Source: an uncultured Planctomycetia bacterium
Lineage (GTDB): Bacteria > Omnitrophota > Gorgyraeia > Duberdicusellales > 4484-171
Reading direction: 5' to 3'
Assembly (NCBI GenBank): GCA_964489445.1
Contig: CAZAYU010000005.1
Span: 68,799 to 132,798 of the forward strand
DNA: 64,000 nt
Shown: one piece after another, positions 41,035 to 63,999 of the stretch
Layout: each line of letters begins with the position of its first letter
Position numbering within the stretch: the first letter of the stretch is position 1
Notes under the pieces: generated by a model
What the model was told of the DNA's origin: nothing
What the model saw: only the letters and a program-made list of their open reading frames with translations
The model's database searches: none
Translations under genes and position numbers: made by a program

Positions 41035-41051
41035 ATTGCCCTTCTTTTTTA

Positions 41052-41993: not shown

Positions 41994-42024
41994 TTATACT
42001 TTTTGATAAAAATTATATGCCAGC

Positions 42025-42480: not shown

Positions 42481-42502
42481 TGTCTCTCCTTAAATATTCA
42501 TT

Positions 42503-43648: not shown

Positions 43649-43651
43649 GTT

Positions 43652-43942: not shown

Positions 43943-43961
43943 TTTTCCTCCTTAGTCATAT

Positions 43962-44566: not shown

Positions 44567-45457
44567 TTAGCCCCATACATCCGCAAAAAGAAAAATTTGA
44601 TACGGATAATTTTCTGCATAGTTATTTAAAACCGTTGCATATTCTTGCACATATTCCTTTAGTTGCTGCCTTTTCTCTTTTTTTCCATCATACTTCGGTC
44701 TTATAACATTGTTAAAATCAACTAGATATTCTTTATGCGATAATTTTGCCGTTAATAAAACAATTATCGGACACTCTAAAGACGCCGCAATTAAAAATGC
44801 TCCAAAAGGAAAACCAGCTTTCTCCCCTAAATAATCCACACCTAAAGCTGGAAACCCATATCGACGGTCACCCATTATGGAAACAACATCCCCACTGTTA
44901 ATCTTTTCTGTTATTTCAATTACTCCTCCAAAGTCTTGCTCCGGAGAAATAATCTTCACTCTTTCTTTTTCTGAGTCAATTTTTAAATTTTTCTTAACAG
45001 TTGTATTGTCTTCTAGCCTCATGACAAGATATATATTTTTATTTAGCTCCTTTAAACAAGATAGAGCTACTTGCCAATTGCCAATATGAGATGTGAGGAA
45101 TATACATCCTTTTTCACTTTGATTAACAATTTTCTTAACAGAATCAAACCCTTTAAGATGCATTGTAAATCCTTCATATCCCGACACTATCGCATACCGA
45201 TCAATCAGCGCCTTTCCTTGACTAACAAAAAGTAAATATACGTGCCGATATTGTTTTAAGAATCCATCTCCTCTAAATCGTCTTTTTGTGTACGCTAAAG
45301 CGCCTTTAACTGCTGCTCGGTCAAACAGCAAATAATATGTACAAACGATATACAACAAGCCATACGCACCTCGTAAGCCAAACAGCCTTGCAGAAACCAT
45401 AAAAATCTGAAATCCCAGCTCGTTTCCTCTTTTTTTTACTTCAATCTTCTTAGACAC
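44567..45457 (-). CDS. LpxL/HtrB-family lipid A-type acyltransferase (lysophospholipid acyltransferase superfamily)
   Basis: SHIGNWQ resembles the LpxL HxGNWE catalytic motif; N-terminal TM anchor; 296 aa. Confidence 0.65.
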   Translation of the reverse strand: MSKKIEVKKRGNELGFQIFMVSARLFGLRGAYGLLYIVCTYYLLFDRAAVKGALAYTKRRFRGDGFLKQYRHVYLLFVSQGKALIDRYAIVSGYEGFTMHLKGFDSVKKIVNQSEKGCIFLTSHIGNWQVALSCLKELNKNIYLVMRLEDNTTVKKNLKIDSEKERVKIISPEQDFGGVIEITEKINSGDVVSIMGDRRYGFPALGVDYLGEKAGFPFGAFLIAASLECPIIVLLTAKLSHKEYLVDFNNVIRPKYDGKKEKRQQLKEYVQEYATVLNNYAENYPYQIFLFADVWG

Positions 45458-46646
45458 TCACAGCACCTTTCTCTGTTTTTCGCTGCAAAAATTTTGTAAT
45501 ACCAAAAACCATAAAGCCAGTAAATACTGCTAATATAGGTGCAACAACCAAAGATCCTAAAAACCATTCCCAAATTCGGTCAAATGCCTGATAAAAAATA
45601 ACATCGACAGAAACTTCTGTCAGCCATGTTCCATAAAGCATGAAATGCCCAACCTCTATGCATACGACAGGAACAAATGGCGGCGCACACAAATTCTGGA
45701 TGCTCACTGCCATAACTTTATTCAAATGCAATCGAGTAGTGACATAAACAATCACAATAGTATGCACTGCAATCAAAGGTAGCACAGCCAGCAAAATCCC
45801 AACTGCCGCGGAGGCAGCCAAGCCTTCAGGAGTTGCATTTTCTTTAAGCAAAAACTTTAAGACTTTAAGAGGATGTTTAAGCAATTCTTTATGCATAATA
45901 CTTTTTTCTTCTCGCTGAATTAGCTTCTTATGAGGAACAGGCAGCAGCCTCCTTAAAACAAGCTGTGTATGCATCATTGAAATTCTTAAATTATCTAGAA
46001 ATCCTTTAAAATGAGAAATTCGCTCCCCTTCTTTAGCATAATGCACGCCAACATCAACTGTCTTAATCCTTAAACCAGCCCAAGCCGCTTTTGCAATAGC
46101 TTCCGTCTCAAAGTCATAATGTACGCCCTTCAAATTAAGCCTCAAAATGTAATCAACAGGGTATGCACGAAAACCACTTTGGCAATCATCAATAGATAGT
46201 CCAGTTTCTATCTTAAACCAGAAATTTGAGAAATTTCTTCCAAATTTACTCTTGCCCGGAATATTCTCTGCAAAAAAATTTCTGGAACCAATAACAATGA
46301 CATCGCCCTGATCTCCAATCTCAGCAATAATCTTAGCGATATCTTTCGGATAATGCTGCCCGTCTGCATCTATTGTAACCGCGTACCTACCACCTTCTTT
46401 TTTTACATATTTCAACCCAGTTAGAATTGCCGCACCTTTACCTTCATTGTTTTCATGCTTAATAACAACAACTCTTCCATCCGCAACAGCTAATCCCACG
46501 TTAAGATCAGTACTTCCATCATCAACAACAACAATGTTCTCAACTTGTTCTTTACACCCCAAAATAACGTCTTTTAAAGTCTTTCCATTGTTGTAAACGG
46601 GGATGATACACCAAATCTTATTTCCTTCAAAATTACTTGGAGTCAT
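45450..46646 (-). CDS. family-2 glycosyltransferase fused to C-terminal 4-TM membrane domain
   Basis: CIIPVYNNGKTLKDVI...VVVDDGSTD GT-A fold with DxD; hydrophobic C-terminal third. Confidence 0.7.
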   Translation of the reverse strand: MTPSNFEGNKIWCIIPVYNNGKTLKDVILGCKEQVENIVVVDDGSTDLNVGLAVADGRVVVIKHENNEGKGAAILTGLKYVKKEGGRYAVTIDADGQHYPKDIAKIIAEIGDQGDVIVIGSRNFFAENIPGKSKFGRNFSNFWFKIETGLSIDDCQSGFRAYPVDYILRLNLKGVHYDFETEAIAKAAWAGLRIKTVDVGVHYAKEGERISHFKGFLDNLRISMMHTQLVLRRLLPVPHKKLIQREEKSIMHKELLKHPLKVLKFLLKENATPEGLAASAAVGILLAVLPLIAVHTIVIVYVTTRLHLNKVMAVSIQNLCAPPFVPVVCIEVGHFMLYGTWLTEVSVDVIFYQAFDRIWEWFLGSLVVAPILAVFTGFMVFGITKFLQRKTEKGAVSV

Positions 46647-48006
46647 AACTCATATGCCTTTTACGTTTTTCTTTTCCTTTAAGAAGCATGTCCCATAAAC
46701 AACCTGAATATCCCATCTTGTGAAGAAACTGCAAACTACTATCTAGCGCGTCCGGAGGAAAAACACAATTCCTCATTCCTTTAAAACCTTCGGTCAATGT
46801 TTTTTCCAGCCATTCTTTTTCAATCGCAGGATCAATGTAATAAACTGGATCTAAAAGATTCCCACCCATCTCAATAACTCCATCATCCTCTGCGATCTTT
46901 AATAATGAGGTTCCCGGTAAAATTCGTACTCCCATAAATATAAATGAAACCGAATTCTTTAGCCTTTGAATATTCTCGATGCCTTCAATAGCTGTTTCTT
47001 TTGTTTCTCCGGGGCATCCAAACATATAATAATGCGCAACCGCAACTTCATGCTTTACGAATAAATCATTTGATTCAATAGCATCTCTAAATAAAAATGA
47101 TTTACCTAGCTTCTTTAAAGTTGTATCTGTCGGTGCATCTGTTCCCAACTCAGCTGCGCACAGCCCTGTACTTTTCATCAATTCTACAATTCCATCCGTT
47201 AGTCCTCTTGGAGTAAAAAACGCTGTCCATGGAACATTTATGTTTCGTTCTTTCATCTCTTTCACAACTTTCAAGTATTCCCCTTGAGAATCATTAAAAA
47301 CAGAATCTGTAAAGAAAATAAGTTTTGCTCCGTACTGTTCATGTAGCTCTTGGACATCATCCACAACAGATTTTGGAACTCTAGCTCTTATTTTTGATCC
47401 TTCCAGCAAAGGATAAGAACAATAAACACATTTACAAGAACACCCTCTTTTTGTTTGAATAGAAGCAACATTGCCGCTTTGCAAATAATACTTCATTAAT
47501 TCTGAATCATATAAAGCATTCGGAATTACACCACCACTTATCAGAGCTCTGCTTCGTATACACTTTTCTTTTGGAAAAATCCTTCTTTCAATATCCTTTA
47601 CAAATTTAACTATCAGTTCTTCCCCTTCACCTACAATTCCATAATCTGCTCCTGTTTTTTCAAGAATAACATTTGGCATGATGGAAAACCCTGAGCCCCC
47701 TAACACAACGACAGCTTTTGAATTCTTCTTTATCATCGCAACAATATCTGTAACAGCATCAATATATCGCTGCTCATTCATTAAATTCACATTATCGATA
47801 TTGCGAATCGAAACCCCTACAATATCCGGATCAATTCTTTTTTGCTCTTTGTTGAGAACATCTAGAGACTTCTCACTTTTTAAGTAATCTCTTTGTTCAA
47901 CATTAATTCCCGCATTCTTTAAAGCTGCTGCAACCATGCTCATCCCCAAAGGATAAATCGTGTAAGGTGTCTTCGCCACATTAGAAGATATTAATAAAAC
48001 TTTCAT
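46633..48006 (-). CDS. cobalamin-binding radical SAM enzyme (class B) #1
   Basis: N-terminal B12-binding-like Rossmann (MKVLLISSNV...), CSCKCVYC = Cx3Cx2C; start set at ATG (ORF-track start is TTG). Confidence 0.75.
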   Translation of the reverse strand: MKVLLISSNVAKTPYTIYPLGMSMVAAALKNAGINVEQRDYLKSEKSLDVLNKEQKRIDPDIVGVSIRNIDNVNLMNEQRYIDAVTDIVAMIKKNSKAVVVLGGSGFSIMPNVILEKTGADYGIVGEGEELIVKFVKDIERRIFPKEKCIRSRALISGGVIPNALYDSELMKYYLQSGNVASIQTKRGCSCKCVYCSYPLLEGSKIRARVPKSVVDDVQELHEQYGAKLIFFTDSVFNDSQGEYLKVVKEMKERNINVPWTAFFTPRGLTDGIVELMKSTGLCAAELGTDAPTDTTLKKLGKSFLFRDAIESNDLFVKHEVAVAHYYMFGCPGETKETAIEGIENIQRLKNSVSFIFMGVRILPGTSLLKIAEDDGVIEMGGNLLDPVYYIDPAIEKEWLEKTLTEGFKGMRNCVFPPDALDSSLQFLHKMGYSGCLWDMLLKGKEKRKRHMSYDSK

Positions 48007-48013
48007 GTTTACA

Positions 48014-49255
48014 TTACCGCCTATCAACTATTAATTTCTGTTTTTTAAATGTCCCATCAGCTTTTTCTTTCTTGATGATATCTATAAATAGCTTTGCCAT
48101 CTTTATCTCCTGACAACAATCACCGTAAAAAGTATCCCATGCATAGTGATACATCTTTTGCAAAGAATCCACCGTCATCAATTTCGGCTGAAAAACAACT
48201 TCCCCACATGTATATTTGATCCAATCGTTATGTAAAATTCTTCCCTGATTCTCCATCTCTCTCCTAAATGGCGTCTGAGAAAAAGGTGTTAAAATAGTAA
48301 ACTCGGCCAAATCCAAATCTATTTCCATGAGAAAATCTACCATTCGCTTAATGTAATCTTCATCGTGATGTTCCAGGCCAAGGAGAATTGTCCCTTCAAC
48401 TCCGATTCCCCTCTCTTTTAGCCTTTTAACTCTATTACGCATATAATCCGAAGTGTCCACAATAGCTTGATACACATACCAGCACCCAGCCTTGGCTGCT
48501 AGATCAAGTATCTCATCGTCGTCTTTAATCGGATGTGAGATCCATTTCTTTTTCAATGGTGCAATTGCCCTAAACAGTTTTTTCTCCCATTCATCATCCT
48601 GCGCTAATGAATTATCAACAATAAATAACCGGTTATTCTTTATACTCTCCAGCTCTTTGACAACTTTCTCGATAGGCCGAGGCCTAAAGCACTTCCCTCC
48701 TAAAAATCGTACGCAACAAGGAAAACAATTGAATTTACACCCTCTGGACATGTGCATCAAGTCAACCATCTGCACACCCTTAAAATTGTATAACTCATGG
48801 TTCAAGATATCTCGTCTTGCAGTATCTACCAATGAGATATCTGGCAATTGTTTTTGATAATTGTAAACTTGCTTTAACTTGCCGTTTCTAAAATCATTAA
48901 TCAAATTTCCGATCACACCTTCCGCTTCCCCTAAAAACACAGCATCTGCATGCGGGATTGTTTCCTCAGGATGCAGCATTGTAGCAATGCCTCCGAAAAT
49001 CACTTTTTTCCCTTTTGCCCGATACAAATCTGCTATTTCCCATGCTCTTGGCATTTGGCATGTCAGCATAACAGACATAGCTATTAAATCAGCATCTTCA
49101 TTAAAATTAATATTTTCTACATTTTCATCGTAGAATGAAATTTCAATATCTGACCCCAAGGCCGCAGCAAAACAGACAGGACCATGAGGAGGCAGATTGA
49201 AACTTGTTTGCTCCTTAAGTTTTGGCCACTTAGGATATATAATCAGTAACTTCAT
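48014..49255 (-). CDS. cobalamin-binding radical SAM enzyme (class B) #2
   Basis: MKLLIIYPKW B12-like start, SRGCKFNCFPC = Cx3Cx2C; AAGGA SD inside preceding gene. Confidence 0.75.
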   Translation of the reverse strand: MKLLIIYPKWPKLKEQTSFNLPPHGPVCFAAALGSDIEISFYDENVENINFNEDADLIAMSVMLTCQMPRAWEIADLYRAKGKKVIFGGIATMLHPEETIPHADAVFLGEAEGVIGNLINDFRNGKLKQVYNYQKQLPDISLVDTARRDILNHELYNFKGVQMVDLMHMSRGCKFNCFPCCVRFLGGKCFRPRPIEKVVKELESIKNNRLFIVDNSLAQDDEWEKKLFRAIAPLKKKWISHPIKDDDEILDLAAKAGCWYVYQAIVDTSDYMRNRVKRLKERGIGVEGTILLGLEHHDEDYIKRMVDFLMEIDLDLAEFTILTPFSQTPFRREMENQGRILHNDWIKYTCGEVVFQPKLMTVDSLQKMYHYAWDTFYGDCCQEIKMAKLFIDIIKKEKADGTFKKQKLIVDRR

Positions 49256-49919: not shown

Positions 49920-49977
49920 ACTATTTCCCTGAACTCCTATTATCAATACTAAATTGATTCCCTACCAGCCAAGAGTA

Positions 49978-50292
49978 TTATTTTGAAACACTATCACTCA
50001 CGCATCGGAATTGCAGAGAAGCACTACCAGGCCTAGCAGGTAAAGAATTTAACATCTCCAAGGCTACTGTCTCCACTTTCTTATTTTGCTTAGAACAAAA
50101 CTCGTTTGCCTCTCGGTACACAACAGCCTTTGCGCCAACAGGCTGACCACAACCAATCTGCCAACTTCTCTTGGATACCACATATGTGTCCTTGTCCATA
50201 GGGATAACTCCTGTGCTTGCACAACCGCTGAGCAGAATAACGAACATTAGACAAAAATAGCCAAGAAACACATTTCTTATTTTTCTAAACAT
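49978..50292 (-). CDS. small lipoprotein (lipobox LLSGCA), paralogue of 42025-42480
   Basis: SGCASTGVIPMDKDTYVVS...EFCSKQNKK...FRC. Confidence 0.45.
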   Translation of the reverse strand: MFRKIRNVFLGYFCLMFVILLSGCASTGVIPMDKDTYVVSKRSWQIGCGQPVGAKAVVYREANEFCSKQNKKVETVALEMLNSLPARPGSASLQFRCVSDSVSK

Positions 50293-50321
50293 AACCCCTC
50301 CCCTTTTCTATGTTTAATTAT

Positions 50322-51458
50322 TTATTCACATGCGACTATTATTAACGCAGAATTAATTCCACCAAATCCAGAGTTTGTTGACAAAACAATATTGTTTTTA
50401 AGCCTAACTTCTTCTTTTTGAATCCACCCTACAGCTTCCTCATCAATATTTTCCGCCCCTACCGTAGGTGGCAAAACATTATTTTGAATAGTTTCTAGCG
50501 CCACCAGAGCATCCATAAGACCAGCTGATCCCATAGTGTGTCCAATTCCACCTTTGATAGAGTAGGTTGGAAGAACTTTACCGCCAAATATACTTTTAAA
50601 TGCTTTCATCTCCATCGAATCGTTATATACCGTTCCTGTCCCATGTGCACAAATACTATTGATTTCTTCGGCTGTTATGCCTCCTGATTCTAGCGCTCTG
50701 TCTATAGCCAAGAATAGACCTTCCCCGTCTATGGACGGACCGGTCACATGGTTTGCATCGCAAGAAATTCCCCAACCTAAAATGCCTCCCTTAACGGGTC
50801 TCTTCTCTTTATCCGCTCTTTCCTTCGACATAAGAAGAATACAAGCTGTCGCTTCCCCAACATTAAGACCCTCTCTATTTTTATCAAATGGTCGAGCGTT
50901 ATATCTATCTAAAGCCATCAGCGATGAAAATCCGGAAATAATAAACTCGCTTACACAATCACAAGAAACAACCAAAACACATTCACTCTTTTTAGACCTA
51001 ATTAACGATGCAGCTCGAGCAATAGCAACGCTAGAGGATGCACATGCAGCAGAAATCAGCATTCCTTTCCCTCTTACCTTAAAAAGATCATGTGTTTTTG
51101 CCAATAAAAGACCTAATCGACTCTCCTCTGAGCTTTTTTTTCCTGTTAACATCTCATCTTCAAGAAAATCAATCTCGCCATTTAAAGACGCGAGCATCAA
51201 GTCAGCATCTTCCGGTATTGAATTGTTAATATTTTCCTTAAGCCTTTCCATCATTTGAAAAACAAGTGATTTCTCATTCCTAGAAACAAGGCCCTTAATT
51301 GTAGCTGCTTTGTTTGATTTGAAATGCCTGGTGTCAAATCTTTTAATGTCATCTATTGAAGTTTGATTACTAAGCAAGCCTTGCCAGCAAACATCTATTC
51401 CTTCTCCATAAGGGGTAACCGCATTATAGTCAACTATGACCGGACTTGCCTTCAGCAT
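50322..51458 (-). CDS. beta-ketoacyl-ACP synthase (KS)
   Basis: AACASSSVAIA active Cys, AHGTGT, GHTMGSAG. Confidence 0.8.
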   Translation of the reverse strand: MLKASPVIVDYNAVTPYGEGIDVCWQGLLSNQTSIDDIKRFDTRHFKSNKAATIKGLVSRNEKSLVFQMMERLKENINNSIPEDADLMLASLNGEIDFLEDEMLTGKKSSEESRLGLLLAKTHDLFKVRGKGMLISAACASSSVAIARAASLIRSKKSECVLVVSCDCVSEFIISGFSSLMALDRYNARPFDKNREGLNVGEATACILLMSKERADKEKRPVKGGILGWGISCDANHVTGPSIDGEGLFLAIDRALESGGITAEEINSICAHGTGTVYNDSMEMKAFKSIFGGKVLPTYSIKGGIGHTMGSAGLMDALVALETIQNNVLPPTVGAENIDEEAVGWIQKEEVRLKNNIVLSTNSGFGGINSALIIVACE

Positions 51459-51928
51459 GAATATTCACCCTTTACCCATTTCTCGCGACACTTTTCAAGC
51501 ATGGCAGGCATTGCAATATATGGTTCCTGAGATTTAGCATCAACAAACATCTGCACAGTATATCCTGTTGCTGCAACTTGCCCATCCTCTTTAATAATTA
51601 CATATTCAATATTGATCCTTGCCCCTTCACTCCAGATCATATTTGCTTCAACATGACAAACCTCATCAAGAATCAATGGCGCATGATAATCAATATGCAT
51701 TTGCACAATTGGCGCACGTAAGCCTGCTTCATAGAATTCCCTGTAAGATAAGCCCCATTTCCGCCCTATAGCGGAAAATCCCTCTTCGAAATATTCTGCA
51801 TACCTGCCATGCCACACAACTCCCATCACGTCGACATCGCTGAAACTTACTCTCTTCTCAACTCGCACAATCAAAGGAGCAGGGCCTTCTGGAATTATCT
51901 TAAAATATTTGCCTAGTTTTCTTCTCAT
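51452..51928 (-). CDS. hot-dog fold acyl-CoA/ACP thioesterase (4HBT/YbgC-like)
   Basis: VSFSDVDVMGVVWHGRYAEYFEEG. Confidence 0.7.
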   Translation of the reverse strand: MRRKLGKYFKIIPEGPAPLIVRVEKRVSFSDVDVMGVVWHGRYAEYFEEGFSAIGRKWGLSYREFYEAGLRAPIVQMHIDYHAPLILDEVCHVEANMIWSEGARINIEYVIIKEDGQVAATGYTVQMFVDAKSQEPYIAMPAMLEKCREKWVKGEYSC

Positions 51929-51940
51929 TACGTAACCCCG

Positions 51941-52309
51941 TTAAAATATCAGCTTTAGTTCAGCGACCTTTTCCTCTTTTTTGACAATGAGAACTTTAAC
52001 AGATAAATTCTCTAAACTCTCGTTCTCAAAACACTTAAATATCAATTCTTCATCACAGGTTGTAGGCTGAAAGAATTTTGCAAGTTTTATTTCCTTCAGC
52101 TCAAGATTATCCTTACCTTTCCACTTCTTTATAACCTCTACTGCCGATAAAATCTTGCAGACTCCAGGCAAAACAGGATTGTTTTCGAAATGCCCCTGAA
52201 ACCCGAGGAACTCTTTATCAAAAATAAAGTTTGCCGTTGCCATGCGCTTATCGATAATATCTATATTGCACATACATCTATTTATGTCCCCTATTAGATC
52301 GCAGCTCAT
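51941..52309 (-). CDS. FabZ-like 3-hydroxyacyl-ACP dehydratase (hot-dog)
   Basis: LGFQGHFENNPVLPGV matches the FabZ HFPxxPxxPGV motif. Confidence 0.65.
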   Translation of the reverse strand: MSCDLIGDINRCMCNIDIIDKRMATANFIFDKEFLGFQGHFENNPVLPGVCKILSAVEVIKKWKGKDNLELKEIKLAKFFQPTTCDEELIFKCFENESLENLSVKVLIVKKEEKVAELKLIF

Positions 52310-52971
52310 AACACCTCTTTGACGTTGATTATCAGCTTGTAGCCATATAAGTAGTTTGCAAAAATTATCCCTTTAGGATACACTTTTCCATCTTTTTCCA
52401 TATATTCATAATATCTGGCCGACCAAGCCTTCTTTTTTCCTTCATAATGTACCTTCTCAATCAAATAATTCTCTTTGCCTGCAAAAACATACTCCGTAAT
52501 CCCAGCGTCTTGTTTCTGGCTAAATATAATTTCTTTTTTCTTCTTTTTAATTTCAAAAAACTTTAATGGTGCCTGGTCAAAATATATACGGTAAATATCC
52601 TTAACCAAAGCTTTCGAAATATCTCCCTTCTTAGAAATTTCATCGATAACATTATTGACCGTGACTTCCCCGTTCTTCGCTGCAATTTCAATGAGCTTTA
52701 CTCCAACAGAATTCATGCCAGCTAATTCGAATGCTTTTTCATTTTCATCAACAGAAAGATATCCTAACGAAAGAAATTTCCTTGCTCTAAACTGAAACAC
52801 AACGGTATTAATAATCTTGAAGCTCTCTGGCGTCAACGCAATATGCTTCCTTAAAACATCTTCAGGATTTCTATTAGTGATTAATATATATTCCGTCTTT
52901 TTAAATGGCACAAAACTGCATCCACCAATAAAACATATAGATAACAAAAGAATACAAACCTGTTTTCTCAC
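52306..52971 (-). CDS. lipoprotein (lipobox FIGGCS), possibly DUF3261-like; GTG start overlapping MMPL stop (GTGA)
   Basis: GGAGGA SD 8 nt before GTG at 52971; MRKQVCILLLSICFIGGCSF signal peptide. Confidence 0.5.
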   Translation of the reverse strand: MRKQVCILLLSICFIGGCSFVPFKKTEYILITNRNPEDVLRKHIALTPESFKIINTVVFQFRARKFLSLGYLSVDENEKAFELAGMNSVGVKLIEIAAKNGEVTVNNVIDEISKKGDISKALVKDIYRIYFDQAPLKFFEIKKKKKEIIFSQKQDAGITEYVFAGKENYLIEKVHYEGKKKAWSARYYEYMEKDGKVYPKGIIFANYLYGYKLIINVKEVL

Positions 52972-55352: not shown

Positions 55353-56004
55353 TTGCTTTAACTTTCCATACTTGTGGATCCAACTTTATATTAATCAATG
55401 TTTCCAGAAAGTGGAACTTTGTTGAATCGCCATTTGTCTCTAAGATATCAATCGTATCAATATATTTTTCATTTTTTTGAAAAAGGATAACAATGTTTTT
55501 TATCATTTTGAATGCCATAGAATTCTTGAAAGGTATGAATTTTAATTTCATAGGCGAAGACTGTATTACTTCAATATCGTACTCATCAATAAGAGATAGA
55601 TATGAACCAGAAACCCATCTCTTCATTTGGTTTGCAATAATATTAAACGATGGGTTGCTTGTTAAGTTAATTTTCTGAATTTGGTTTGTATCTTCATCCC
55701 ATTGCATAACAACATTATCCTTTAAAATAATTCTTTGCCTCAAAGGTGAACTGATATGCCAAGCAAAAGAAGATGGGTTACGCAAAAATAAATAACCTTT
55801 AATTGTTAGCTTCTGCCCAAACAAGGATAAATTCTTTTCCTCGATAAACTGTGTCGAGAGCGTTGTAATGCTTGACATTTTTTCCTCTATTATCCTCAGA
55901 TCATTTATCAAGTTAGAATTGGCTTCTTTGCAAATTCCGCTTAAAACAAATATATGCATAAATAAAATCATTAAAATTAGAACTCGAATCTTTACACGTC
56001 TCAT
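55345..56004 (-). CDS. LolA-like periplasmic lipid/lipoprotein carrier
   Basis: Signal peptide, 219 aa, immediately upstream of MMPL exporter as in APE clusters; fold call by context. Confidence 0.45.
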   Translation of the reverse strand: MRRVKIRVLILMILFMHIFVLSGICKEANSNLINDLRIIEEKMSSITTLSTQFIEEKNLSLFGQKLTIKGYLFLRNPSSFAWHISSPLRQRIILKDNVVMQWDEDTNQIQKINLTSNPSFNIIANQMKRWVSGSYLSLIDEYDIEVIQSSPMKLKFIPFKNSMAFKMIKNIVILFQKNEKYIDTIDILETNGDSTKFHFLETLINIKLDPQVWKVKASD

Positions 56005-57506
56005 TGAACTAGCGTCAGCCTCCCCACTTCTGCATTCTCGCTATGCCAAATCTTAACTTCCCCTCTTGCTAAGACTCTATTGCCTTTTACAACCTCTCCC
56101 TCGACTATTGCAAAATTTCCATATCTTGCTTTTTTCTCTATAGAGATCAAAAGGGTATCTCCTACACTTGCATTACCAAAAATCTTCATTTTCTTAGCTC
56201 CTAATAAAAAACCTTCTACCTTGTATCCAGGGTTCCCTAGATTCTTAAAACAATTATGTGCTGCTATTGTCTGCGCTATCATCTCTAAATAAATTGCGCC
56301 ATTAAGTTGCCCCTTCTTGTCAATAAAAAGCATGTTTTCTGAAATGCGTACTGAGGCCTCTGCCCTTCGATCGCGGACACTCAACAGCTTATCAATAACT
56401 CTCATTGGAGTTTTTTGAGGAATTATATTTTCAACACTAATCGGAAGCTTAGTTATCTCTGACTGCCTGTTATAATTTTTCCAACAAAGAGGATCTGAAG
56501 CTAAGTAATCCCCTGTTATCTGATAGGCTGATCCTCGGCATCCATAACAATGATCTAGTTCATCACATGCTCGGCAAGGACCTTTGATAAGATTCTTATA
56601 ATTCTTAAGATCTTCCATAACTTCACTTGTTTCTAAAATATCTTTTAATTTCTTGCTTCTAACATTACCCATAGGGATTGTAACGCCAACACAGGGCATA
56701 ACATCTCCGTTTGCATTGACAAAGCAAGAATACTGATGCCTAAAACACTTATTCCCGATAAGCGGCGGTTGAACTTCCCAAGTATTTCCATATTTTTCTT
56801 TGTCGATCTTAGCAATCTTCTTAAATAATCTCTCTACTTCCAAAGAGTCAACTTCCAACCATTGGTGATCGTTAAATTTTCCTTGAGGAGTAATCATCTC
56901 AAAGTAGGGGAGGATATTCCTGTCTCTAAGCCATATCCACAAATCAGTGAGTTCATCTATGTTTTGCTGACAAATAATTGTACTCACAGCCACATATTTA
57001 TTTTTTGCTGGATATCCCGCTTTTTGGATATTCTCGATAGCTTCTTTTATCATAAGGTGTGATCCCTGAATTCCAGTAAGCATATCCTGCGTTTCTTTAT
57101 TAAATGAATTCATTTTCAAGACAATATTAACACCCAAATCAAACAATGTATTAGCAATAACCTCGTTGACCTGCGAACCGTTGGTAAACATCTCTGATTC
57201 CAGACCTTCATTACGTATAAAAGACAACACTTCAAGAATGTGCGGATAAATCAACGGCTCTCCGCCTAAAACAATAATCTTTTTTGCTCCCAAATTCTTT
57301 GCTTGCAAAATAATATCCTGAATTTGATTTAAATCCATTTCTTTATCAAAAAAAGAATCACTCTTAACATAACAATACGGACATTGAAAATCGCACTTGG
57401 TATTGAATTCAATTTCCATAGATAGCAATCGTCCATGCTCTTTTGCTTCTCTGATCTCTTCACCTGTAAACTCAACATTAAAAATTCTCTTATTACAATC
57501 ACTCAT
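56001..57506 (-). CDS. radical SAM / SPASM-domain enzyme fused to C-terminal hot-dog (FabZ/ApeI-like) domain
   Basis: CDFQCPYC Cx3Cx2C; SPASM Cys clusters CFRHQYSCF...PC and CRACDELDHCYGC; C-terminal 150 aa with YLEMIAQTIAA hot-dog central helix. Confidence 0.75.
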   Translation of the reverse strand: MSDCNKRIFNVEFTGEEIREAKEHGRLLSMEIEFNTKCDFQCPYCYVKSDSFFDKEMDLNQIQDIILQAKNLGAKKIIVLGGEPLIYPHILEVLSFIRNEGLESEMFTNGSQVNEVIANTLFDLGVNIVLKMNSFNKETQDMLTGIQGSHLMIKEAIENIQKAGYPAKNKYVAVSTIICQQNIDELTDLWIWLRDRNILPYFEMITPQGKFNDHQWLEVDSLEVERLFKKIAKIDKEKYGNTWEVQPPLIGNKCFRHQYSCFVNANGDVMPCVGVTIPMGNVRSKKLKDILETSEVMEDLKNYKNLIKGPCRACDELDHCYGCRGSAYQITGDYLASDPLCWKNYNRQSEITKLPISVENIIPQKTPMRVIDKLLSVRDRRAEASVRISENMLFIDKKGQLNGAIYLEMIAQTIAAHNCFKNLGNPGYKVEGFLLGAKKMKIFGNASVGDTLLISIEKKARYGNFAIVEGEVVKGNRVLARGEVKIWHSENAEVGRLTLVQ

Positions 57507-58807
57507 TATTTTCTCCTATCAAAAAACCGAATTGGTTTTCTATTGTCTTGAGCATAAATAATTCTTTTCATAGCATCGTCTTTTTCTAAAATAATTATTG
57601 GTTTTACGCGTAGACTTGCCTGTATTCTTTCCTGTAAAAATTCTAAATCAAGGGCAAGATCATTAATAGCTACATGAATAATCAAACTGTCAGAAAGAGC
57701 GCTCTCGCTTATTGCCTCGATATAATATTCTTGAACTTCTTTGGTGCTATCTAATACAGCATAGACAGCTTGCGGATAAAGAGTCGTTCCTTTGACTTTC
57801 ATCATTTGTTTTTTCCTGCCAAGAATAGGCCCTAAACGCTTTGATTTTCTTCCGCACTTGCAAGGCTCACTCATCAAAAAACTAATATCCCCCGTCTTAT
57901 AACGCACTAACGGCATCCCCTCAATTCCAAGCGGTGTGATAACAACTTCTCCGGTTATTCCGTCATCCAAAATATTTCCTTGATCGTCAACGATCTCAAT
58001 AACTGCTAAATCAGGATGTAAATGCCCTCCGTGTTGCGCTTCGCATTCACAAAAAGTGGTAACTATCTCTGAAGAGGCATAAGTGGAATACACTTTTGCA
58101 CCCCAAATTTCTTCCAGCTCAAGGCCAACACTTAGCAACTCTACTTTTTCATTACGCAGGGGTTCGCCAATACAAATAATTCGTTTCACGCTTGATAAGG
58201 GCTGCTCTCCATCTTCCTTTTTCATATAAAGTCCCAATTTTCTAATAAAAGATGGCACACCCACAATGGCCGTTGGTTTCATTTTACCAATAACTTCTTT
58301 GTGGCTATCTAAACTTCCATGTCCATTACGTATTGCAGATGCTCCTAAATTAGTTATTCCTAAAAAATAGGCTAACCCTGCAATAAAACATCTATCCATT
58401 GTGCATGTTAAAAGAACAATATCTTTTTTCGTTAAACCGCAACCAACAAATGATTTCTCTTCATTATATGCAAGACGCGTCAAATCTTGCCCTGTGTACA
58501 TAATCTTGATAGGCTTCCCTGTCGTTCCAGACGAAAGAACAATATCAACAATCTGCTCTGGGTTTACTGCGCGAAATCCATCATTATCATGTTCAATAAA
58601 CAATTTCTCTGTTAAAGGAACATCTTTAAAATTTATAAGATTAACTTTTGTAACATCCTTAATCAGGCCATCTAAAAATTTCCTATAAAAGGGAGACTGG
58701 CTCAAACAATATTTAAGATGGGCTTGAAGCAATTGCGTTTGAACTTGCTCGATTATTTCTTTGCTTTCAAATCCGATATCTTTATATTTATAAAAATCTC
58801 TCATCAT
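57506..58807 (-). CDS. phenylacetate-CoA ligase family adenylating enzyme (PaaK/CapK-like)
   Basis: SSGTTGKPIKIMYT P-loop, 433 aa. Confidence 0.7.
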   Translation of the reverse strand: MMRDFYKYKDIGFESKEIIEQVQTQLLQAHLKYCLSQSPFYRKFLDGLIKDVTKVNLINFKDVPLTEKLFIEHDNDGFRAVNPEQIVDIVLSSGTTGKPIKIMYTGQDLTRLAYNEEKSFVGCGLTKKDIVLLTCTMDRCFIAGLAYFLGITNLGASAIRNGHGSLDSHKEVIGKMKPTAIVGVPSFIRKLGLYMKKEDGEQPLSSVKRIICIGEPLRNEKVELLSVGLELEEIWGAKVYSTYASSEIVTTFCECEAQHGGHLHPDLAVIEIVDDQGNILDDGITGEVVITPLGIEGMPLVRYKTGDISFLMSEPCKCGRKSKRLGPILGRKKQMMKVKGTTLYPQAVYAVLDSTKEVQEYYIEAISESALSDSLIIHVAINDLALDLEFLQERIQASLRVKPIIILEKDDAMKRIIYAQDNRKPIRFFDRRK

Positions 58808-59556
58808 GTTTGATCCATTTTTATTAATTCATTTCTCATGATTTCTCTCACCCTATTCTTCAGAACAAAGGAATTCATATCTTTGTAATCGTTCCAATGT
58901 AAGGCTAATAACTTGTGAATCTTAATAGTCCCAGGGTTTAATACAAAGGAACCCTTAGCCGGTTTATTTTCATTTCCTGAAATACAAAAAGGAACAATAG
59001 AGCACTTTGTTTCTATTGCTGCCCTAAAAATAGAGCTATAGAATTGTCCTGGTTCCTTACTGTCTGATCTCGTCCCTTCTGGAAATGAAACGACATTCAC
59101 TCCTTCTCCGATTAACTTTTTCATTTTTAACAAAAATACATCAATGGACATTTCCTTGACACTCAAATATCCGGCAACCTTAGCACCAAGGCCAAGAACA
59201 GGTAGCTTAAAAGGCCAAGTGTTCACTATTTGAATACCTTCAAAAGGCAAACATGCCATCAAGAACGCATCGGAAGCAGACCTGTGATTGCAAATAAAAA
59301 TAAACGGCCCCACTCTATTGTCATTCCTGCCAAAATCCTCATACTGAACTTTAATGAATGGAAAAGGAAGAACATAGATAATAATCCTTCCGTACCAACC
59401 AATAGCTCTTCGCCATATTTTTAATATAACACGTCTTGGAAAAACCAAAGCACCCAATGAAACCAATAATACTACCGAGGGAATAGCAATAATCGAAAAG
59501 ACGAGAAACATCAAATAAAAAACTACATTTAGAATAAATTTATTAATTTTTTCCAA
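58804..59556 (-). CDS. 1-acyl-sn-glycerol-3-phosphate acyltransferase-like (PlsC/LPLAT)
   Basis: ICNHRSASDAF HX4D motif, FPEGTRS motif III. Confidence 0.75.
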   Translation of the reverse strand: MEKINKFILNVVFYLMFLVFSIIAIPSVVLLVSLGALVFPRRVILKIWRRAIGWYGRIIIYVLPFPFIKVQYEDFGRNDNRVGPFIFICNHRSASDAFLMACLPFEGIQIVNTWPFKLPVLGLGAKVAGYLSVKEMSIDVFLLKMKKLIGEGVNVVSFPEGTRSDSKEPGQFYSSIFRAAIETKCSIVPFCISGNENKPAKGSFVLNPGTIKIHKLLALHWNDYKDMNSFVLKNRVREIMRNELIKMDQT

Positions 59557-59567
59557 AATAAATTCGC

Positions 59568-59837
59568 TTATCTATCAACTGAGAAATTCCCTTCTTTATA
59601 AAGAGATTCAATAAAACTATAAATATCGCCTAATGTCCTTATTTCTCGAACCCTATTATCATCCCTTATTTTCACGCCAAATTTTTTCTGAAGAGCAACA
59701 ACTAGATCAACAATGTCAAGACTGTCTAATCCAAGGTCTTCAAAGATGCCTTTCTCAGAGGACAGCTCTCCTTTATTTATTTCAAAAGACTCCTCAAAAA
59801 CTTGGTTGACCATCTCTTCTATCTTTTTCTTATCCAT
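59568..59837 (-). CDS. acyl carrier protein (ACP 3 of 3)
   Basis: EDLGLDSLDIVDLVVALQKKFG. Confidence 0.8.
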   Translation of the reverse strand: MDKKKIEEMVNQVFEESFEINKGELSSEKGIFEDLGLDSLDIVDLVVALQKKFGVKIRDDNRVREIRTLGDIYSFIESLYKEGNFSVDR

Positions 59838-59855
59838 AGATAACTTCTCCTTTTC

Positions 59856-61079
59856 TTAAAGTATCTTTTTGCAGATTAAAGACGCGTTTATCCCTCCGAA
59901 AGCAAAACAATTCTTTAGTATAGAATTAATCTTCTTGTCTTGAATCTCCATGACATGGTTAATGCCTTTACAGTCTTCTGCAATATCATCCAAATTCTTC
60001 GTGGGATAAATTTTGCTTTTCTGCATCATTTTAAGAGCAGCAATCAATTCTATAGACCCTGAAGCACCTAAAGTATGCCCTATATACCCCTTCAAACTAC
60101 TTACTGGTACTTTATCCCCAAATATCTCCTTTAAAGCTCCAGCCTCTTCTTGATCTCCATGAATAGTAGCTGTTGCGTGTGCATTAATATAATCAATGTT
60201 AGCTGACTGCATGCCTGCGCTTTTAAGTGCCTCTTTCATACAGAAAACCATTGCTTCTCTACTTGGTTGGCTTACATGCTCTCCACTTCCGCATGTATGA
60301 TACCCGGCTACTTCCGCATAAATATTTGCATTCCTTTTTTGTGCATGTTCGTAATCTTCTAAAATGAGGATTCCACTTCCTTCACCACAGACTAATCCAT
60401 CTCTACCCTTATCAAAAGGCCTTGGAGTACACTTCGGATTATCATTAAAGTGTGTAGATGTTGCGAAGAGAATATCAAAGGAGCCTGCAACGATTGCATG
60501 TAACTCTTCTGCCCCTCCACAGAGAATAACATCTTGCTTGCCAGACTGAATAATCCCATAAGCCGCACCTACTGCCTGTAGGGCAGATGCACAAGCTGCT
60601 GATGTTGCCATGACATATCCTTTAATCCCAAAACATTGTGAAACATTCATCGCTGCTGTGTGAGAAACACATTTGAAAAAATTCATTGAAGATAATTTAG
60701 ATAAATCTTTTTCTGGAAGCATCATTTCAAACGTATCATTCATTGCTTCAGCTCCACCCATTGTGGATCCGATGATGCATCCCGTGCGAGCAGATGCAAT
60801 AACGCTTTCACTTAAGCCAGAATCCTTCACTGCCTCTTCAGATGCTTGCGCAGCAAAGATGCCCATCCGCCCCATAGAACGTCTCTTTTTTCTTGGAATG
60901 CTTCTTTCATCCTCTATCTTTGCAGGAGCGGCTATTAATGTGTTTAGCCCAATATACTCTTTCCACTTTTCCATTCTCTGGACAGCGCTTCTATTAGTCT
61001 CTAGCCCCTGAATATACTCTTCGACATTAACTCCTAAAGGACAAACTACACCCATCCCAGTTATCACAACTCTTTTCAT
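59856..61079 (-). CDS. beta-ketoacyl-ACP synthase II-like (FabF family)
   Basis: MKRVVITGMGVVCPLG, SAACASALQA active Cys, HATAT, GHTLGASG. Confidence 0.85.
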   Translation of the reverse strand: MKRVVITGMGVVCPLGVNVEEYIQGLETNRSAVQRMEKWKEYIGLNTLIAAPAKIEDERSIPRKKRRSMGRMGIFAAQASEEAVKDSGLSESVIASARTGCIIGSTMGGAEAMNDTFEMMLPEKDLSKLSSMNFFKCVSHTAAMNVSQCFGIKGYVMATSAACASALQAVGAAYGIIQSGKQDVILCGGAEELHAIVAGSFDILFATSTHFNDNPKCTPRPFDKGRDGLVCGEGSGILILEDYEHAQKRNANIYAEVAGYHTCGSGEHVSQPSREAMVFCMKEALKSAGMQSANIDYINAHATATIHGDQEEAGALKEIFGDKVPVSSLKGYIGHTLGASGSIELIAALKMMQKSKIYPTKNLDDIAEDCKGINHVMEIQDKKINSILKNCFAFGGINASLICKKIL

Positions 61080-62572
61080 CGGTGTAACCTTGCTTTAATA
61101 AAATTATTGTAATCATCTCGCCCAACAATACTCCTTGCCACAATAAAAGAAGACATCATCGCACCCACGACTCCTGGCAAAACAGAACTTTGCCCACACG
61201 CATAAAGATTTCGCAAAGGAAGCTTTCCAAACACATTAAACTGACCCATCTTTTGTTTGATCCCATAGGCTGTACATTCGTATGAGTTCAAATAATCCCT
61301 ATACGTAAGAATAGAAGCAGCGCAAATAACTTTAAATGAATCCCTGTAAGCTGGATTATATTGAAAAATTCTTTCTTTAATCTGTTGCTCCCGGTTCTTT
61401 TTGTATTCATAGTAGGCCTTCGGCCGTTTTCCAACACTAGAATCCAGCCATTGAGAGACATCTTCACTAGACGAAGACTCCATGGCGGTAAGGACCTTGA
61501 CCTTTTTGCTATCAATATCTTCATAAGAAGTCATTAGTACAAGAGCTGAGCAACCATTGTCGGAAGGCTCAAACAGCGTGTTCACGTCATCCGAAGGAAG
61601 AAGGGAAACAATGCTTGGTGTAAAATCATTATCATCAGCTTCGACAATACCAAACAGAGAAAAAAATCCAGACGCAGGCTCAAAATCACTAACCCTCATC
61701 AAAAAAGCCTTAGTCAAATTATCTTTCGGAAGGCTCTCAACAATAGCCTTGGGATGAATTGTAAAAATACATTGATTACAAGATAACTCCTCGCCCGTAC
61801 TTAAAATGAACTTCTTGACAATATTGCCCTCGACATCTAAAAACTTATCAATAGTGCACTTTGTTTTAATATCAACTCCAAGCTCAAGAAGTGCATCTTT
61901 AAACGCGCTAACGAATGCTCCTCCGCCTCTCTTAATCCGCACGACGCTATCGTACATTCCATACGCAACACGAAAATGATTCGCAACTGAAACCTCTGAC
62001 GGCCTTACCCCGTAACACATACAAAATGTTGATAATATACCCTTTAAGTATCTGCTCTTAAAAGACTTATCTAGGACTTCTTGTAGGCTAATATAATCCT
62101 CATCTAAGATATTAGTAACTTCAGTAATCCTTAAAAGATCTAAAGAAGCAGTCTCCTCGTAGATCTTCTTAGCTAAATTAAAAAAATAATCAATGCCCTC
62201 TTCCTCACCCGGGAAAAATTCTTTGAGTTTTTCAATAAAGCTTAAAACCCCATTCGGCATATAATATTTCTTGTGATCATTCTCGAAGATATACGCCTGG
62301 CCCTCTTTATCGGAAAGTATTACTGGCTCAATTTTATTCTCTATCCCCAGAACACTGAGCATATCATGCAAAACCCCATTCTCTAAGAATGCCCCTGTAA
62401 AATGGAATCCTGTATCAAAAGGAATTCCTTCTTTAACAAAACGTGACATACTCCCACCAATACGATTTGACTTCTCAACAATTAAAACCTTCTGTCCGTT
62501 TAAAGCAAGAATATTCGCAAGTGTCAAGCCACTTATTCCACTACCCACAACTATACTGTCATAAAATTTCAT
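61076..62572 (-). CDS. CrtI-like (phytoene-desaturase family) FAD-dependent oxidoreductase/desaturase
   Basis: YDSIVVGSGISGLTLANILALNGQKVLIVEKSNRIGG; about 500 aa COG1233 architecture; start trimmed to MKFYD. Confidence 0.6.
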   Translation of the reverse strand: MKFYDSIVVGSGISGLTLANILALNGQKVLIVEKSNRIGGSMSRFVKEGIPFDTGFHFTGAFLENGVLHDMLSVLGIENKIEPVILSDKEGQAYIFENDHKKYYMPNGVLSFIEKLKEFFPGEEEGIDYFFNLAKKIYEETASLDLLRITEVTNILDEDYISLQEVLDKSFKSRYLKGILSTFCMCYGVRPSEVSVANHFRVAYGMYDSVVRIKRGGGAFVSAFKDALLELGVDIKTKCTIDKFLDVEGNIVKKFILSTGEELSCNQCIFTIHPKAIVESLPKDNLTKAFLMRVSDFEPASGFFSLFGIVEADDNDFTPSIVSLLPSDDVNTLFEPSDNGCSALVLMTSYEDIDSKKVKVLTAMESSSSEDVSQWLDSSVGKRPKAYYEYKKNREQQIKERIFQYNPAYRDSFKVICAASILTYRDYLNSYECTAYGIKQKMGQFNVFGKLPLRNLYACGQSSVLPGVVGAMMSSFIVARSIVGRDDYNNFIKARLHR

Positions 62573-62582
62573 ACTACCAACC

Positions 62583-63329
62583 TTAGATAACAAGCCCTCC
62601 ATTAACCCCAATAACTTGCCCGTGAATATACATATCCTTCTCATTGCATAAAAACCCTACAACAGAGGCAATATCCTTCGGCTTTCCTGTCTTTTTCAAA
62701 GGAATCAAAGGCAAAACTTTGTCTTTTGGTATGCCTTTAGTCATATCCGTATCAATAAAACCTGGAGAGACAACATTAACAAAAATATTCTTCTTTCCGA
62801 CCTCTCGCGCCAAAGCTTTGCACGCCCCTATAAGTCCTGCCTTAGAAGCAGAATAATTAACCTGCCCTGCTTGGCCCACCTCTCCCGCAGTTGAAGAAAT
62901 TGCAACAATCCTTCCTCTTTTTTCTCTCAACATTGGGAAAAGAACAGAGTTCGTAACATTATAAAAACCATTTAGATTAGTTGCAATGACATCATTCCAT
63001 TCTTTCTCCGTTGTCCACATCAAAAGATTATCCCTAGTAATGCCTGAATTAAAAACTACTACATAAGGAGGAGTTTCTTCAGCTTTATCGGACAAGGCTT
63101 TCTTAGTTTCAGTATAACTAGAAACATCAAATGAAGATAGTTCACATTTACGCCCTATCTTTTCCACTTCCTTTTTAACAATATCTGCAGCGTTATTATT
63201 ATTTCGATAGGTAAGCCATATATCGAAACCCAAGCTTGCCAGCTTAAGAACAATGGCTTTTCCTATTCCTCTGCTTCCTCCAACTACTAATGCAATTTTG
63301 TTTTTTATTTCATTCATTTTATACTCCAT
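62583..63329 (-). CDS. fabG: 3-oxoacyl-ACP reductase (SDR, FabG-like)
   Basis: ALVVGGSRGIGKAI, NSGI, YSASKAG catalytic Tyr-Lys. Confidence 0.85.
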   Translation of the reverse strand: MEYKMNEIKNKIALVVGGSRGIGKAIVLKLASLGFDIWLTYRNNNNAADIVKKEVEKIGRKCELSSFDVSSYTETKKALSDKAEETPPYVVVFNSGITRDNLLMWTTEKEWNDVIATNLNGFYNVTNSVLFPMLREKRGRIVAISSTAGEVGQAGQVNYSASKAGLIGACKALAREVGKKNIFVNVVSPGFIDTDMTKGIPKDKVLPLIPLKKTGKPKDIASVVGFLCNEKDMYIHGQVIGVNGGLVI

Positions 63330-63336
63330 TTATTAG

Positions 63337-63999
63337 TTAAAATTTCCATGTTGTCCCAAAAAGAAACATGTTCACATTTATACCGTCATTAGGCAATTTT
63401 CTATTTGCATTAGATAAATGCCGATATCGGTATTCAACATCAAAAGACAAATTTTCCTTCAAATCATAAGAAATTCCTATACCCATCTGAGGAATAAAAT
63501 TGTATTGTGTTGATTGCTCATTTGTCTGTTGCGACATATAAAGAACACCACCACCTACAAAAAAGTATGGATTTATTTTTTCCGTAGCTGGATATGAGTA
63601 TTTCATAAGAATATCAAATCCAACTTCAATATTGTTATCCGGACTAATAATCGTATTTAAAAAAGTTTCTGCTAAAAATTCTGTCTCTCCTTTAACATTA
63701 ATATCGTGAGCATTAAAGACTTTTTCAGCAACATATTCAACAATATCTGCTGCTCCAATGCCGAGCTTGTCAACATCAAAAGCAAATCTAAATATTGAAG
63801 GAACAATCTTATAATCATTTTTTCCACTCAAGTCCCCTTTGGCGAAACCTGTATAATAAGAAAAGCTCTTATAATATGGGGTATCTTTTTCAGAACCGTC
63901 TGCTTTTTGGGCATACGAATTATAACTTATTGATGCAGTGAGCAATATAACGATGATAATAATTAATGGGAAACGAAATGTTTTTTGGTAAGAATTCAT
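63337..63999 (-). CDS. outer-membrane beta-barrel acyl-hydrolase, PagL-like (lipid A deacylase family)
   Basis: Signal peptide, amphipathic beta strands, C-terminal TWKF; RYRHLSNAN resembles the PagL H-x-S-N catalytic dyad region; first gene of operon in window (promoter beyond window edge). Confidence 0.45.
   Translation of the reverse strand: MNSYQKTFRFPLIIIIVILLTASISYNSYAQKADGSEKDTPYYKSFSYYTGFAKGDLSGKNDYKIVPSIFRFAFDVDKLGIGAADIVEYVAEKVFNAHDINVKGETEFLAETFLNTIISPDNNIEVGFDILMKYSYPATEKINPYFFVGGGVLYMSQQTNEQSTQYNFIPQMGIGISYDLKENLSFDVEYRYRHLSNANRKLPNDGINVNMFLFGTTWKF

Follow-up and report, generated by a model that had tools for sequence, protein, structure and literature searches.

A 64,000-nucleotide stretch of an uncultured Omnitrophota genome (contig CAZAYU010000005.1, assembly GCA_964489445.1; hereafter the window) carries an operon of about 28 kb that probably assembles and exports a lipid in the manner of aryl polyene (APE) gene clusters (ape genes), within a cluster that also encodes radical S-adenosylmethionine (SAM) enzymes, and in which a PagL-family outer-membrane barrel would trim an outer-membrane glycolipid after export. 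The attachment and export genes are the ordinary ApeD/ApeJ/ApeL-M-N set, and the PagL-family esterase, which leads a minority of such operons, is the only unusual piece. A sequence-only reading of positions 44567 to 63999 had singled out PagL-like, LpxL-like, and PlsC-like proteins, a family 2 glycosyltransferase (GT2), and an export trio, and had proposed that these lipid A-type enzymes graft the pathway product onto a membrane lipid or lipid A-like acceptor and move it to the outer membrane. The domains that it named lie where it placed them, and all but DUF3261 (PF11659, 22.0 against a gathering threshold of 22.3) exceed the Pfam thresholds; the motifs RYRHLSNAN, HIGNWQ, and HX4D (HRSASD) can likewise be read in the translations.

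The operon runs on the minus strand from 63999 down to 36180, approximately 8.4 kb past the lower end of that earlier reading (44567), and comprises 30 open reading frames (ORFs) with spacings of -62 to +41 nt. A gap of 1119 nt follows the last gene, and the GC content is approximately 36%. Since all 30 ORFs share one strand with tight spacing and the same collinear set is present elsewhere, in Omnitrophota, Nitrospirota, and unclassified genomes, the named genes are grouped non-randomly. The closest homologues of the PagL-like and radical SAM proteins are from Candidatus Omnitrophota, and the nearest species-representative genome is that of Ca. Aceula meridiana (83% and 88% identity for the two proteins, respectively). 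Ca. Aceula has been described as an anaerobic fermenter from Ace Lake, and its description paper makes no mention of this cluster (PMC8542988).

Lipid attachment and export genes

To identify counterparts of known APE genes, we compared all window proteins by BLASTP (E <= 0.01) with the 18 Ape proteins of the Escherichia coli CFT073 ape cluster (L005:23728-38749). The PlsC-fold lysophospholipid acyltransferase (58804 to 59556, minus strand, as for all operon genes below; 250 aa; PF01553 63.5 against 23) has an N-terminal transmembrane segment and the motifs HX4D (NHRSASD) and FPEGTRS. ApeD is its top match among the 18 proteins (28% identity over 102 aa, 1.6e-6), and it aligns over its full length with Thermotoga maritima PlsC (5KYM). 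The membrane GT2 (45450 to 46646; PF00535 86.6) with its C-terminal DUF2062 domain (42.4) matches the N-terminal half of ApeJ (35% identity to residues 10-239, 1.5e-36), and the 296-aa LpxL-fold acyltransferase (44567 to 45457; PF03279 35.7 against 22.3), in which HIGNWQ occupies residues 124-129, matches the C-terminal half (25% identity to residues 261-549, 7.5e-22). These two genes overlap by 8 nt, and 24 of the 150 closest representatives of the LpxL-fold protein are at least 500 aa long and match at their C-terminus, as in the fused ApeJ, which together with the matches to the ApeJ halves indicates that the pair is a split ApeJ. The best NCBIfam match of the GT2 is the polyprenyl-phospho-N-acetylgalactosamine (GalNAc) synthase PpgS (94 bits), a match below its cutoff that nevertheless would fittingly agree with the use of GalNAc in the solved APE lipid. 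Homology and synteny show the PlsC-like protein and the GT2/LpxL-fold pair to be the counterparts of ApeD and ApeJ, respectively.

Neither acyltransferase groups with housekeeping phospholipid enzymes. By NCBIfam, the PlsC-like protein is not a PlsC equivalog (TIGR00530, 48.9 against a cutoff of 102.95; PRK15018, 29.4 against 501), and the LpxL-like protein is not a lipid A lauroyl or myristoyl transferase equivalog, with a best score of 35.7 against a cutoff of 248 (LpxL equivalog cutoffs are 248-350).

The putative export genes are adjacent to each other, in the order apeL-apeM-apeN of E. coli CFT073. They encode a LolA-like periplasmic carrier in the ApeL position (55345 to 56004; PF03548 48.3 against 23.6; LolA2_flexi 91.5, which does not reach the cutoff of 125), an ApeM-like MMPL/RND transporter (52968 to 55352; MMPL 22.5 against 20.5, with ACR_tran and HpnN/HAE3 matches), and a DUF3261/LolB-like lipoprotein in the ApeN position (52306 to 53007; lipobox IGGC; LolB2_flexi 24.5, below its cutoff). 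The transporter has weak BLASTP matches to ApeM in both of its halves. Although PF11659 falls 0.3 bits short in the lipoprotein itself, it is clear in orthologues (L084 and L085). The same combination of homology and synteny shows that these three proteins correspond to ApeL, ApeM, and ApeN.

The remaining core proteins match ApeR/O, ApeQ, ApeK, ApeE/F, and ApeI/P. With the ape clusters of E. coli CFT073 and Xenorhabdus doucetiae the operon therefore shares a PlsC-fold acyltransferase, a GT2 and an LpxL-fold acyltransferase, the LolA-like/MMPL/DUF3261 series in the same order, ApeR/O-type ketosynthases, chain length factor (CLF)-like proteins, ApeE/F-type acyl carrier proteins (ACPs), ApeI and ApeP dehydratases, an ApeQ ketoreductase, and an ApeK thioesterase. 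It differs from them in that ApeJ is split into two overlapping genes, with DUF2062 on the GT2 and HX4Q in place of HX4E, and in that a PaaK/FlxY-type ligase takes the ligase role. Further differences are the three radical SAM enzymes (one of them fused to ApeP), a CrtI-like desaturase, a third ACP, a condensation-like enzyme, and the leading PagL-family gene.

The description of these enzymes as lipid A-type, which stems mostly from family names, was not borne out, since the LpxL-like protein and the GT2 are the two halves of ApeJ and the APE lipid uses a lyso-glycerophospholipid and GalNAc-phosphate. If lipid A were the anchor, a lipid A precursor would receive the pathway chain from the LpxL-like enzyme as a secondary acyl chain, and PagL would strip a 3-O-acyl chain from it in the outer membrane, so that the resulting lipid A would be under-acylated and polyene-modified. 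Such an anchor is favored by the Pfam family names (PF03279 and PF09411), and lipid A is, to our knowledge, the sole characterized substrate of PagL. Johnston et al. also named lipid A or a derivative as a possible APE anchor before the APE lipid structure was available (PMC8253772). We nonetheless regard a lipid A anchor as highly improbable: the LpxL-like protein scores well short of the LpxL equivalog cutoffs, is homologous to the acyltransferase half of ApeJ and encoded beside the GT2 half, and has HX4Q instead of HX4D/E. In addition, most clusters of this type are without PagL, and the dedicated LolA/MMPL/LolB-like route differs from Lpt, the route used by lipid A. The solved Xenorhabdus APE lipid is based on GalNAc-phosphate-glycerol, not on lipid A (10.1101/2020.12.19.423268). 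The more general claim of grafting onto a membrane lipid followed by outer-membrane export is the accepted model for homologous APE clusters (PMC8253772; 10.1101/2020.12.19.423268), whereas the lipid A-like acceptor is not supported.

A PagL-family barrel at the head of the operon

The leading gene (63337 to 63999) encodes a protein of 220 aa with a signal peptide, a C-terminal WKF, and a PF09411 score of 69.6 against 23; its homologues carry the NCBI name 'acyloxyacyl hydrolase'. Sequence and structure model agree that it is a genuine PagL-family eight-stranded barrel. In a phmmer alignment to Pseudomonas aeruginosa PagL (2ERV), His126, Ser128, and Glu140, which we take to be the catalytic triad in the numbering of Rutten et al. 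2006, correspond to His194, Ser196, and Asn208, and RYRHLSNAN spans residues 191-199. In sets of 23 and of 64 homologues the His and Ser never vary, and they sit in a PagL sequence context, so this is not a generic OmpW/OmpA-like barrel lacking them. The third catalytic position, 12 residues after the Ser as in PagL, holds Asn rather than an acidic residue in all eight copies linked to the cluster; in unlinked copies it is Asp in 33, Asn in 20, and Glu, Ala, or Gly in one each. Catalysis is plausible, since His-Ser-Asn is the arrangement found in the outer-membrane phospholipase OMPLA. PagL H126 and OMPLA H142/N156 have been identified as triad members (10.1101/191650).

The AlphaFold2 (AF2) model of this protein (pLDDT 84, pTM 0.73) consists of a signal helix and eight strands, with H194 and S196 at the end of strand 7 and N208 at the start of strand 8. 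As the C-terminus of such barrels is periplasmic, the three residues would be located at the outer-leaflet end, as is the H-x-S-N motif of PagL. Foldseek aligned the model to 2ERV with a TM score of 0.70, an rmsd of 4.0 Å (the lowest among the matches), and 18% identity. NspA (1p4t) alone had a higher TM score (0.72), and OmpA/OmpX-type barrels were found at similar E-values; because generic eight-stranded barrels score similarly, the fold is not diagnostic on its own. No NCBIfam match exceeded its cutoff, the only ones being weak matches to PorG/OmpA barrels, and the PagL assignment therefore rests on Pfam, the 2ERV alignment, and the fold. Besides the Asn in place of Glu140 and its location within a lipid-biosynthesis operon, the protein differs from P. 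aeruginosa PagL in an insertion of 11-15 residues, present in all eight linked copies and absent from 55 unlinked homologues. In the AF2 model the insertion forms a helix of residues 83-95, lying between strands 2 and 3 and, by strand parity, on the periplasmic side.

This helix raises the possibility that the barrel mainly serves the LolA-like/MMPL/LolB-like route as its site of docking or insertion at the outer membrane, with the helix receiving the carrier and catalysis being secondary or lost. Such a role would fit the ApeL/M/N route, for which no outer-membrane component is known (PMC8253772). However, the His and Ser are invariant and Asn takes the third triad position as in OMPLA (10.1101/191650), and most clusters export without PagL, making a docking role very unlikely.

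Sequence beyond position 64000 can be read from the metagenome contig L087 (European Nucleotide Archive, ENA), which is identical to the window over 18,000 compared bases. There, a sigma-70 promoter (TTGACT-17-TATAAT, 11 of 12 positions matching; L087 3455-3483) lies 24-52 nt beyond the window end, hence just outside the window, and a ribosome-binding site (GGAAAGGA) directly precedes the ATG at 63999. These elements identify the PagL-like gene as promoter-proximal and first in the operon. An automatic gene call of 256 aa (L087 3400-4170), 36 codons longer, was rejected because its start falls upstream of the promoter; the 220-aa reading, with its predicted ribosome-binding site, canonical signal peptide, and C-terminal WKF, is preferred.

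The PagL-like gene ends 7 nt before a gene for a FabG/ApeQ-like ketoreductase (62583 to 63329; adh_short 165 bits; 39% identity to ApeQ), and in relatives the distance is 19-24 nt, on the same strand. Six species-representative genomes (L006-L011) and a metagenome contig (L002/L003) have it at the front of the same collinear cluster, with PagL identities of 47-88% among linked loci and cluster protein identities down to 35-66%. Upstream neighbors differ between L001 and L002, the two loci examined. Nitrospirota and other Omnitrophota clusters begin at fabG. A metagenome sample seeded with the CrtI-like protein of the operon yielded 54 evaluable clusters. Among these, one contains a PagL relic (L134), one has a divergent copy nearby (L123), and 50 are without PagL. 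The L134 remnant (3299-3457) consists of 53 C-terminal codons, 72% identical to the linked copy of L002, between a response-regulator gene and fabG, and looks like a decayed PagL at the cluster head. In L123, a contig of 62.5% GC, the PagL-family gene (1698-2285) is approximately 30% identical, has HHISN and Asn at Ser+12 but no insertion, and lies 600 nt upstream of fabG in a cluster of rearranged order (FabG-KS-CrtI-ACP, KS being ketosynthase); this gene suggests a second, possibly independent recruitment. PagL is thus an optional, lineage-restricted accessory gene and not a core part of the pathway.

This distribution bears on whether PagL, as an ordinary lipid A 3-O-deacylase, occupies the operon head or is co-regulated only and has no part in the pathway. 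Collinear clusters without PagL in Nitrospirota, another Omnitrophota, and 50 of the 54 sampled loci are consistent with that view, as are the relic in L134, which demonstrates that PagL can be lost, the approximately 55 unlinked Omnitrophota-type homologues in unrelated contexts, and the failure to find a second PagL-pattern locus in genomes with a linked copy. On the other hand, PagL and fabG are encoded on one strand with 7-24 nt between them, the promoter precedes PagL, the linkage has been kept despite the divergence of the cluster proteins and the differing upstream neighbors, the linked copies form a clade with its own insertion, and the L123 gene suggests a second recruitment. On balance we consider an ordinary deacylase rather unlikely. 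A more far-reaching scenario is that the barrel was recruited at least once, possibly twice independently (the Omnitrophota clade and L123), as a dedicated outer-membrane enzyme for a glycolipid other than lipopolysaccharide (LPS). It would use His-Ser-Asn for deacylation or transacylation of an exported lipid modified by the polyene and radical SAM enzymes, and with its periplasmic helix as a docking site for the LolA-like carrier or the LolB-like lipoprotein it would be the missing outer-membrane end of the ApeL/M/N-type route; the scenario is unlikely.

Text searches pairing aryl polyene, flexirubin, or xanthomonadin with PagL returned false positives only. The PagL-led form with its clade-specific insertion and Asn triad is absent from the searched literature; the cluster type and its attachment and export logic are already known.

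Some of the unlinked homologues (L014, L016, and L077, around 1-10540) are found a few kilobases downstream of a KS-FabG-FabZ-KS set, an alpha/beta hydrolase, and an amine oxidase. The one in L014 starts 6 nt after the stop codon of a DegT-type sugar aminotransferase gene, a different, LPS-like context. Genes for DUF748/AsmA/YhdP-like proteins, which are candidate outer-membrane lipid transporters, are present in the window at 22361-23704 and also in L001 (4517-8378), an 85%-identical relative in which they are directly upstream of the PagL-led cluster.

Radical SAM enzymes and the remainder of the operon

Judged by its protein families, the operon is an aryl-polyene-type type II polyketide/fatty acid synthase decorated with radical SAM enzymes, a class termed 'ladderane-type' by antiSMASH and TIGRFAMs. 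The sequence-only reading overlooked this variant, along with the small minority of clusters in which PagL is present. Two B12-binding radical SAM enzymes are encoded at 46633 to 49255 (identified by Pfam), and the product of 46633-48027 is a full-length member of TIGR04072, 'lipid biosynthesis B12-binding/radical SAM protein' (609 bits against a cutoff of 360). A third enzyme (56001 to 57506) is a radical SAM/SPASM protein by Pfam fused to an ApeP-like dehydratase, its C-terminus matching ApeP at 4.4e-9. This fusion belongs to a large and highly conserved family, with 2437 homologues at E<=1e-10 and more than 50% identity across phyla, and PF22817 is among the precomputed assignments of these homologues.

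A CrtI/CrtD-like desaturase of the FAD amine-oxidase fold (61076 to 62644; PF01593, with CrtD and CrtI NCBIfam matches all below cutoff) corresponds to the 'phytoene dehydrogenase' of ladderane-type clusters. Starter activation would be carried out by a PaaK/FlxY-like adenylating ligase (57506 to 58807; NF053551 FlxY, 454 bits against a cutoff of 520), which has no BLASTP match to ApeH. Genes for chain synthesis include an ApeR-like ketosynthase (59856 to 61079; 44% identity, E 1e-117), an ApeF-like ACP (59568 to 59837; PP-binding, 38% identity), an ApeK-like hotdog thioesterase (51452 to 51928; 4HBT_2 64 bits, 37% identity), and an ApeI-like dehydratase (51941 to 52309). In the last of these, PF22818 and FabA are both below threshold and the ApeI BLASTP match is 1.4e-4; PF22818 is present in its orthologues. 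In total, the operon encodes three ketosynthases, two CLF-like proteins, and three ACPs.

The TIGR04072 radical SAM protein, CrtI-like oxidase, PaaK-like ligase, glycosyltransferase, and FabF paralogues that make up the ladderane-type composition are all present. SAM enzymes, a phenylacetyl-CoA ligase, a glycosyltransferase, and a phytoene dehydrogenase have been described in the "ladderane" loci of Kuenenia and Desulfotalea (Rattray et al. 2009, PMC2649909). With these ladderane-type clusters of anammox bacteria, Desulfotalea psychrophila, and others the operon shares the TIGR04072 B12-radical SAM enzyme, a second radical SAM enzyme, the phytoene-dehydrogenase-like oxidase, the phenylacetyl-CoA-ligase-like enzyme, the glycosyltransferase, and divergent FabF paralogues. 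However, ladderanes are known solely from anammox Planctomycetota, and the antiSMASH 'ladderane' clusters of Omnitrophota, Desulfobacterota, and other phyla have no function assigned (PMC9902471). D. psychrophila has a syntenic cluster and makes no ladderanes (PMC2649909). A ladderane product was therefore rejected, as the TIGR04072 family and the synteny also occur in organisms without ladderanes (PMC2649909, PMC9902471), and no ladderanes are expected from this operon.

The ligase, the LolA-like carrier, and the DUF3261 protein have their best NCBIfam matches in families of the Bacteroidota flexirubin clusters (FlxY, 454; LolA2_flexi, 91.5; LolB2_flexi, 24.5), but all three are below the curated cutoffs. 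Unlike flexirubin clusters, the operon contains radical SAM enzymes, and no dialkylresorcinol (DarA/DarB) or tyrosine ammonia-lyase genes were seen in it.

The remaining part of the operon (36180 to 44525) encodes lipoproteins, a second ACP (ApeE-like), a third ketosynthase (ApeO-like), a CLF-like protein, a secreted BamE-like protein, a third ACP, a condensation-like acyltransferase (SHKLFDG), an FAD oxidoreductase, and an AMP-binding enzyme. Its 3' module (36180-41034) comprises the AMP-binding enzyme, the FAD oxidoreductase (PF12831), the condensation-superfamily protein, whose SHKLFDG fits HxxxDG, the third ACP, and the BamE-like protein. It possibly adds a further acyl-transfer step, one absent from the list of the earlier reading. 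A triplet of ketosynthase, small lipoprotein, and CLF-like protein occurs twice, at 50322-51458/49978-50292/49230-49946 and at 42503-43648/42025-42480/41052-41993. The two lipoproteins are paralogous (37% identity), and one has a C-terminal SHOCT domain. They were considered as ApeA homologues and rejected, having no similarity to E. coli ApeA.

Proposed route and its implications

In Xenorhabdus, ApeD has been proposed to place a conjugated fatty acyl chain on the sn-2 position of lysophosphatidylglycerol, ApeJ to attach GalNAc and to use the ACP-bound aryl polyene for its subsequent O-acylation, and ApeL/M/N to carry the lipid to the outer membrane (10.1101/2020.12.19.423268; PMC8253772). 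By analogy to this APE lipid, a lyso-glycerophospholipid would receive one ACP-bound chain in ester linkage on the cytoplasmic side of the inner membrane, a sugar-phosphate head group would be added by the GT2, and the LpxL-fold domain would use a second ACP-bound chain to O-acylate the sugar. Delivery of the finished glycolipid to the outer membrane would then fall to the MMPL pump, the LolA-like shuttle, and the LolB-like lipoprotein, and there the PagL-family barrel may remove an ester-linked acyl chain. One candidate substrate of the barrel is the sugar-acylated lipid made by the operon itself, which would bear an O-acyl ester on the sugar and a 3-hydroxyacyl ester analogous to the natural substrate of PagL; the other is lipid A, which would be remodelled or co-regulated as the new lipid is inserted. 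PagL most likely trims esters in the outer membrane once export is complete. The alternative that PagL makes the lyso-acceptor for the ACP-dependent acyltransferases was rejected as topologically inconsistent.

Several observations weigh against this proposal. The acceptor lipid is extrapolated from a distant gammaproteobacterial system, as there is no radical SAM-type cluster with a known product or activity. The matches to ApeD and ApeM are weak, BLASTP at E <= 0.01 links neither the LolA-like protein nor the DUF3261 protein to E. coli ApeL or ApeN, and no homologues of ApeG, ApeB, or ApeH were found among the window proteins. The LpxL-like protein has HX4Q and lacks the canonical HX4D/E dyad of LpxL and LpxM. 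Intact PagL is directly upstream of fabG in only two of the 54 sampled clusters, and this scarcity implies that it is dispensable for the pathway and that its linkage possibly reflects co-regulation only. Finally, a search of the six species-representative genomes with linked PagL gave no further PagL-pattern locus, which would fit a housekeeping lipid A deacylase that merely sits there.

The HX4Q motif is a family trait and not a sign of decay, as Gln is the majority state of this subfamily. Pairwise BLASTP motif mapping gave HX4Q in 99 of 141 sequences among the closest representatives, HX4E in 24, and HX4D in seven; the corresponding motif of E. coli ApeJ is HLGDVE. The subfamily may use a different catalytic acid. 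A phmmer search of the LpxL-like protein against Protein Data Bank (PDB) sequences returned no LpxM or PatA match, so no residue can be proposed for the missing acid.

APE-type clusters are regarded as the family of biosynthetic gene clusters that is most widespread in bacteria, and their radical SAM 'ladderane-type' relatives occur commonly in anaerobes, among them Omnitrophota, Nitrospirota, and Desulfobacterota. These relatives share the ApeD/ApeJ/ApeL-M-N logic of assembly and export, and the product class predicted here is an outer-membrane glycerophospho-glycolipid with two special acyl chains, which speaks against interpreting clusters of this type as pathways to ladderanes or lipid A. 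In the PagL-led subset, the coupling of an outer-membrane lipid esterase to a pathway for a non-LPS lipid can be put to the test. If this coupling is true, it would widen the substrate range of the PagL family and would supply an outer-membrane component to a lipid-export route that at present has none.

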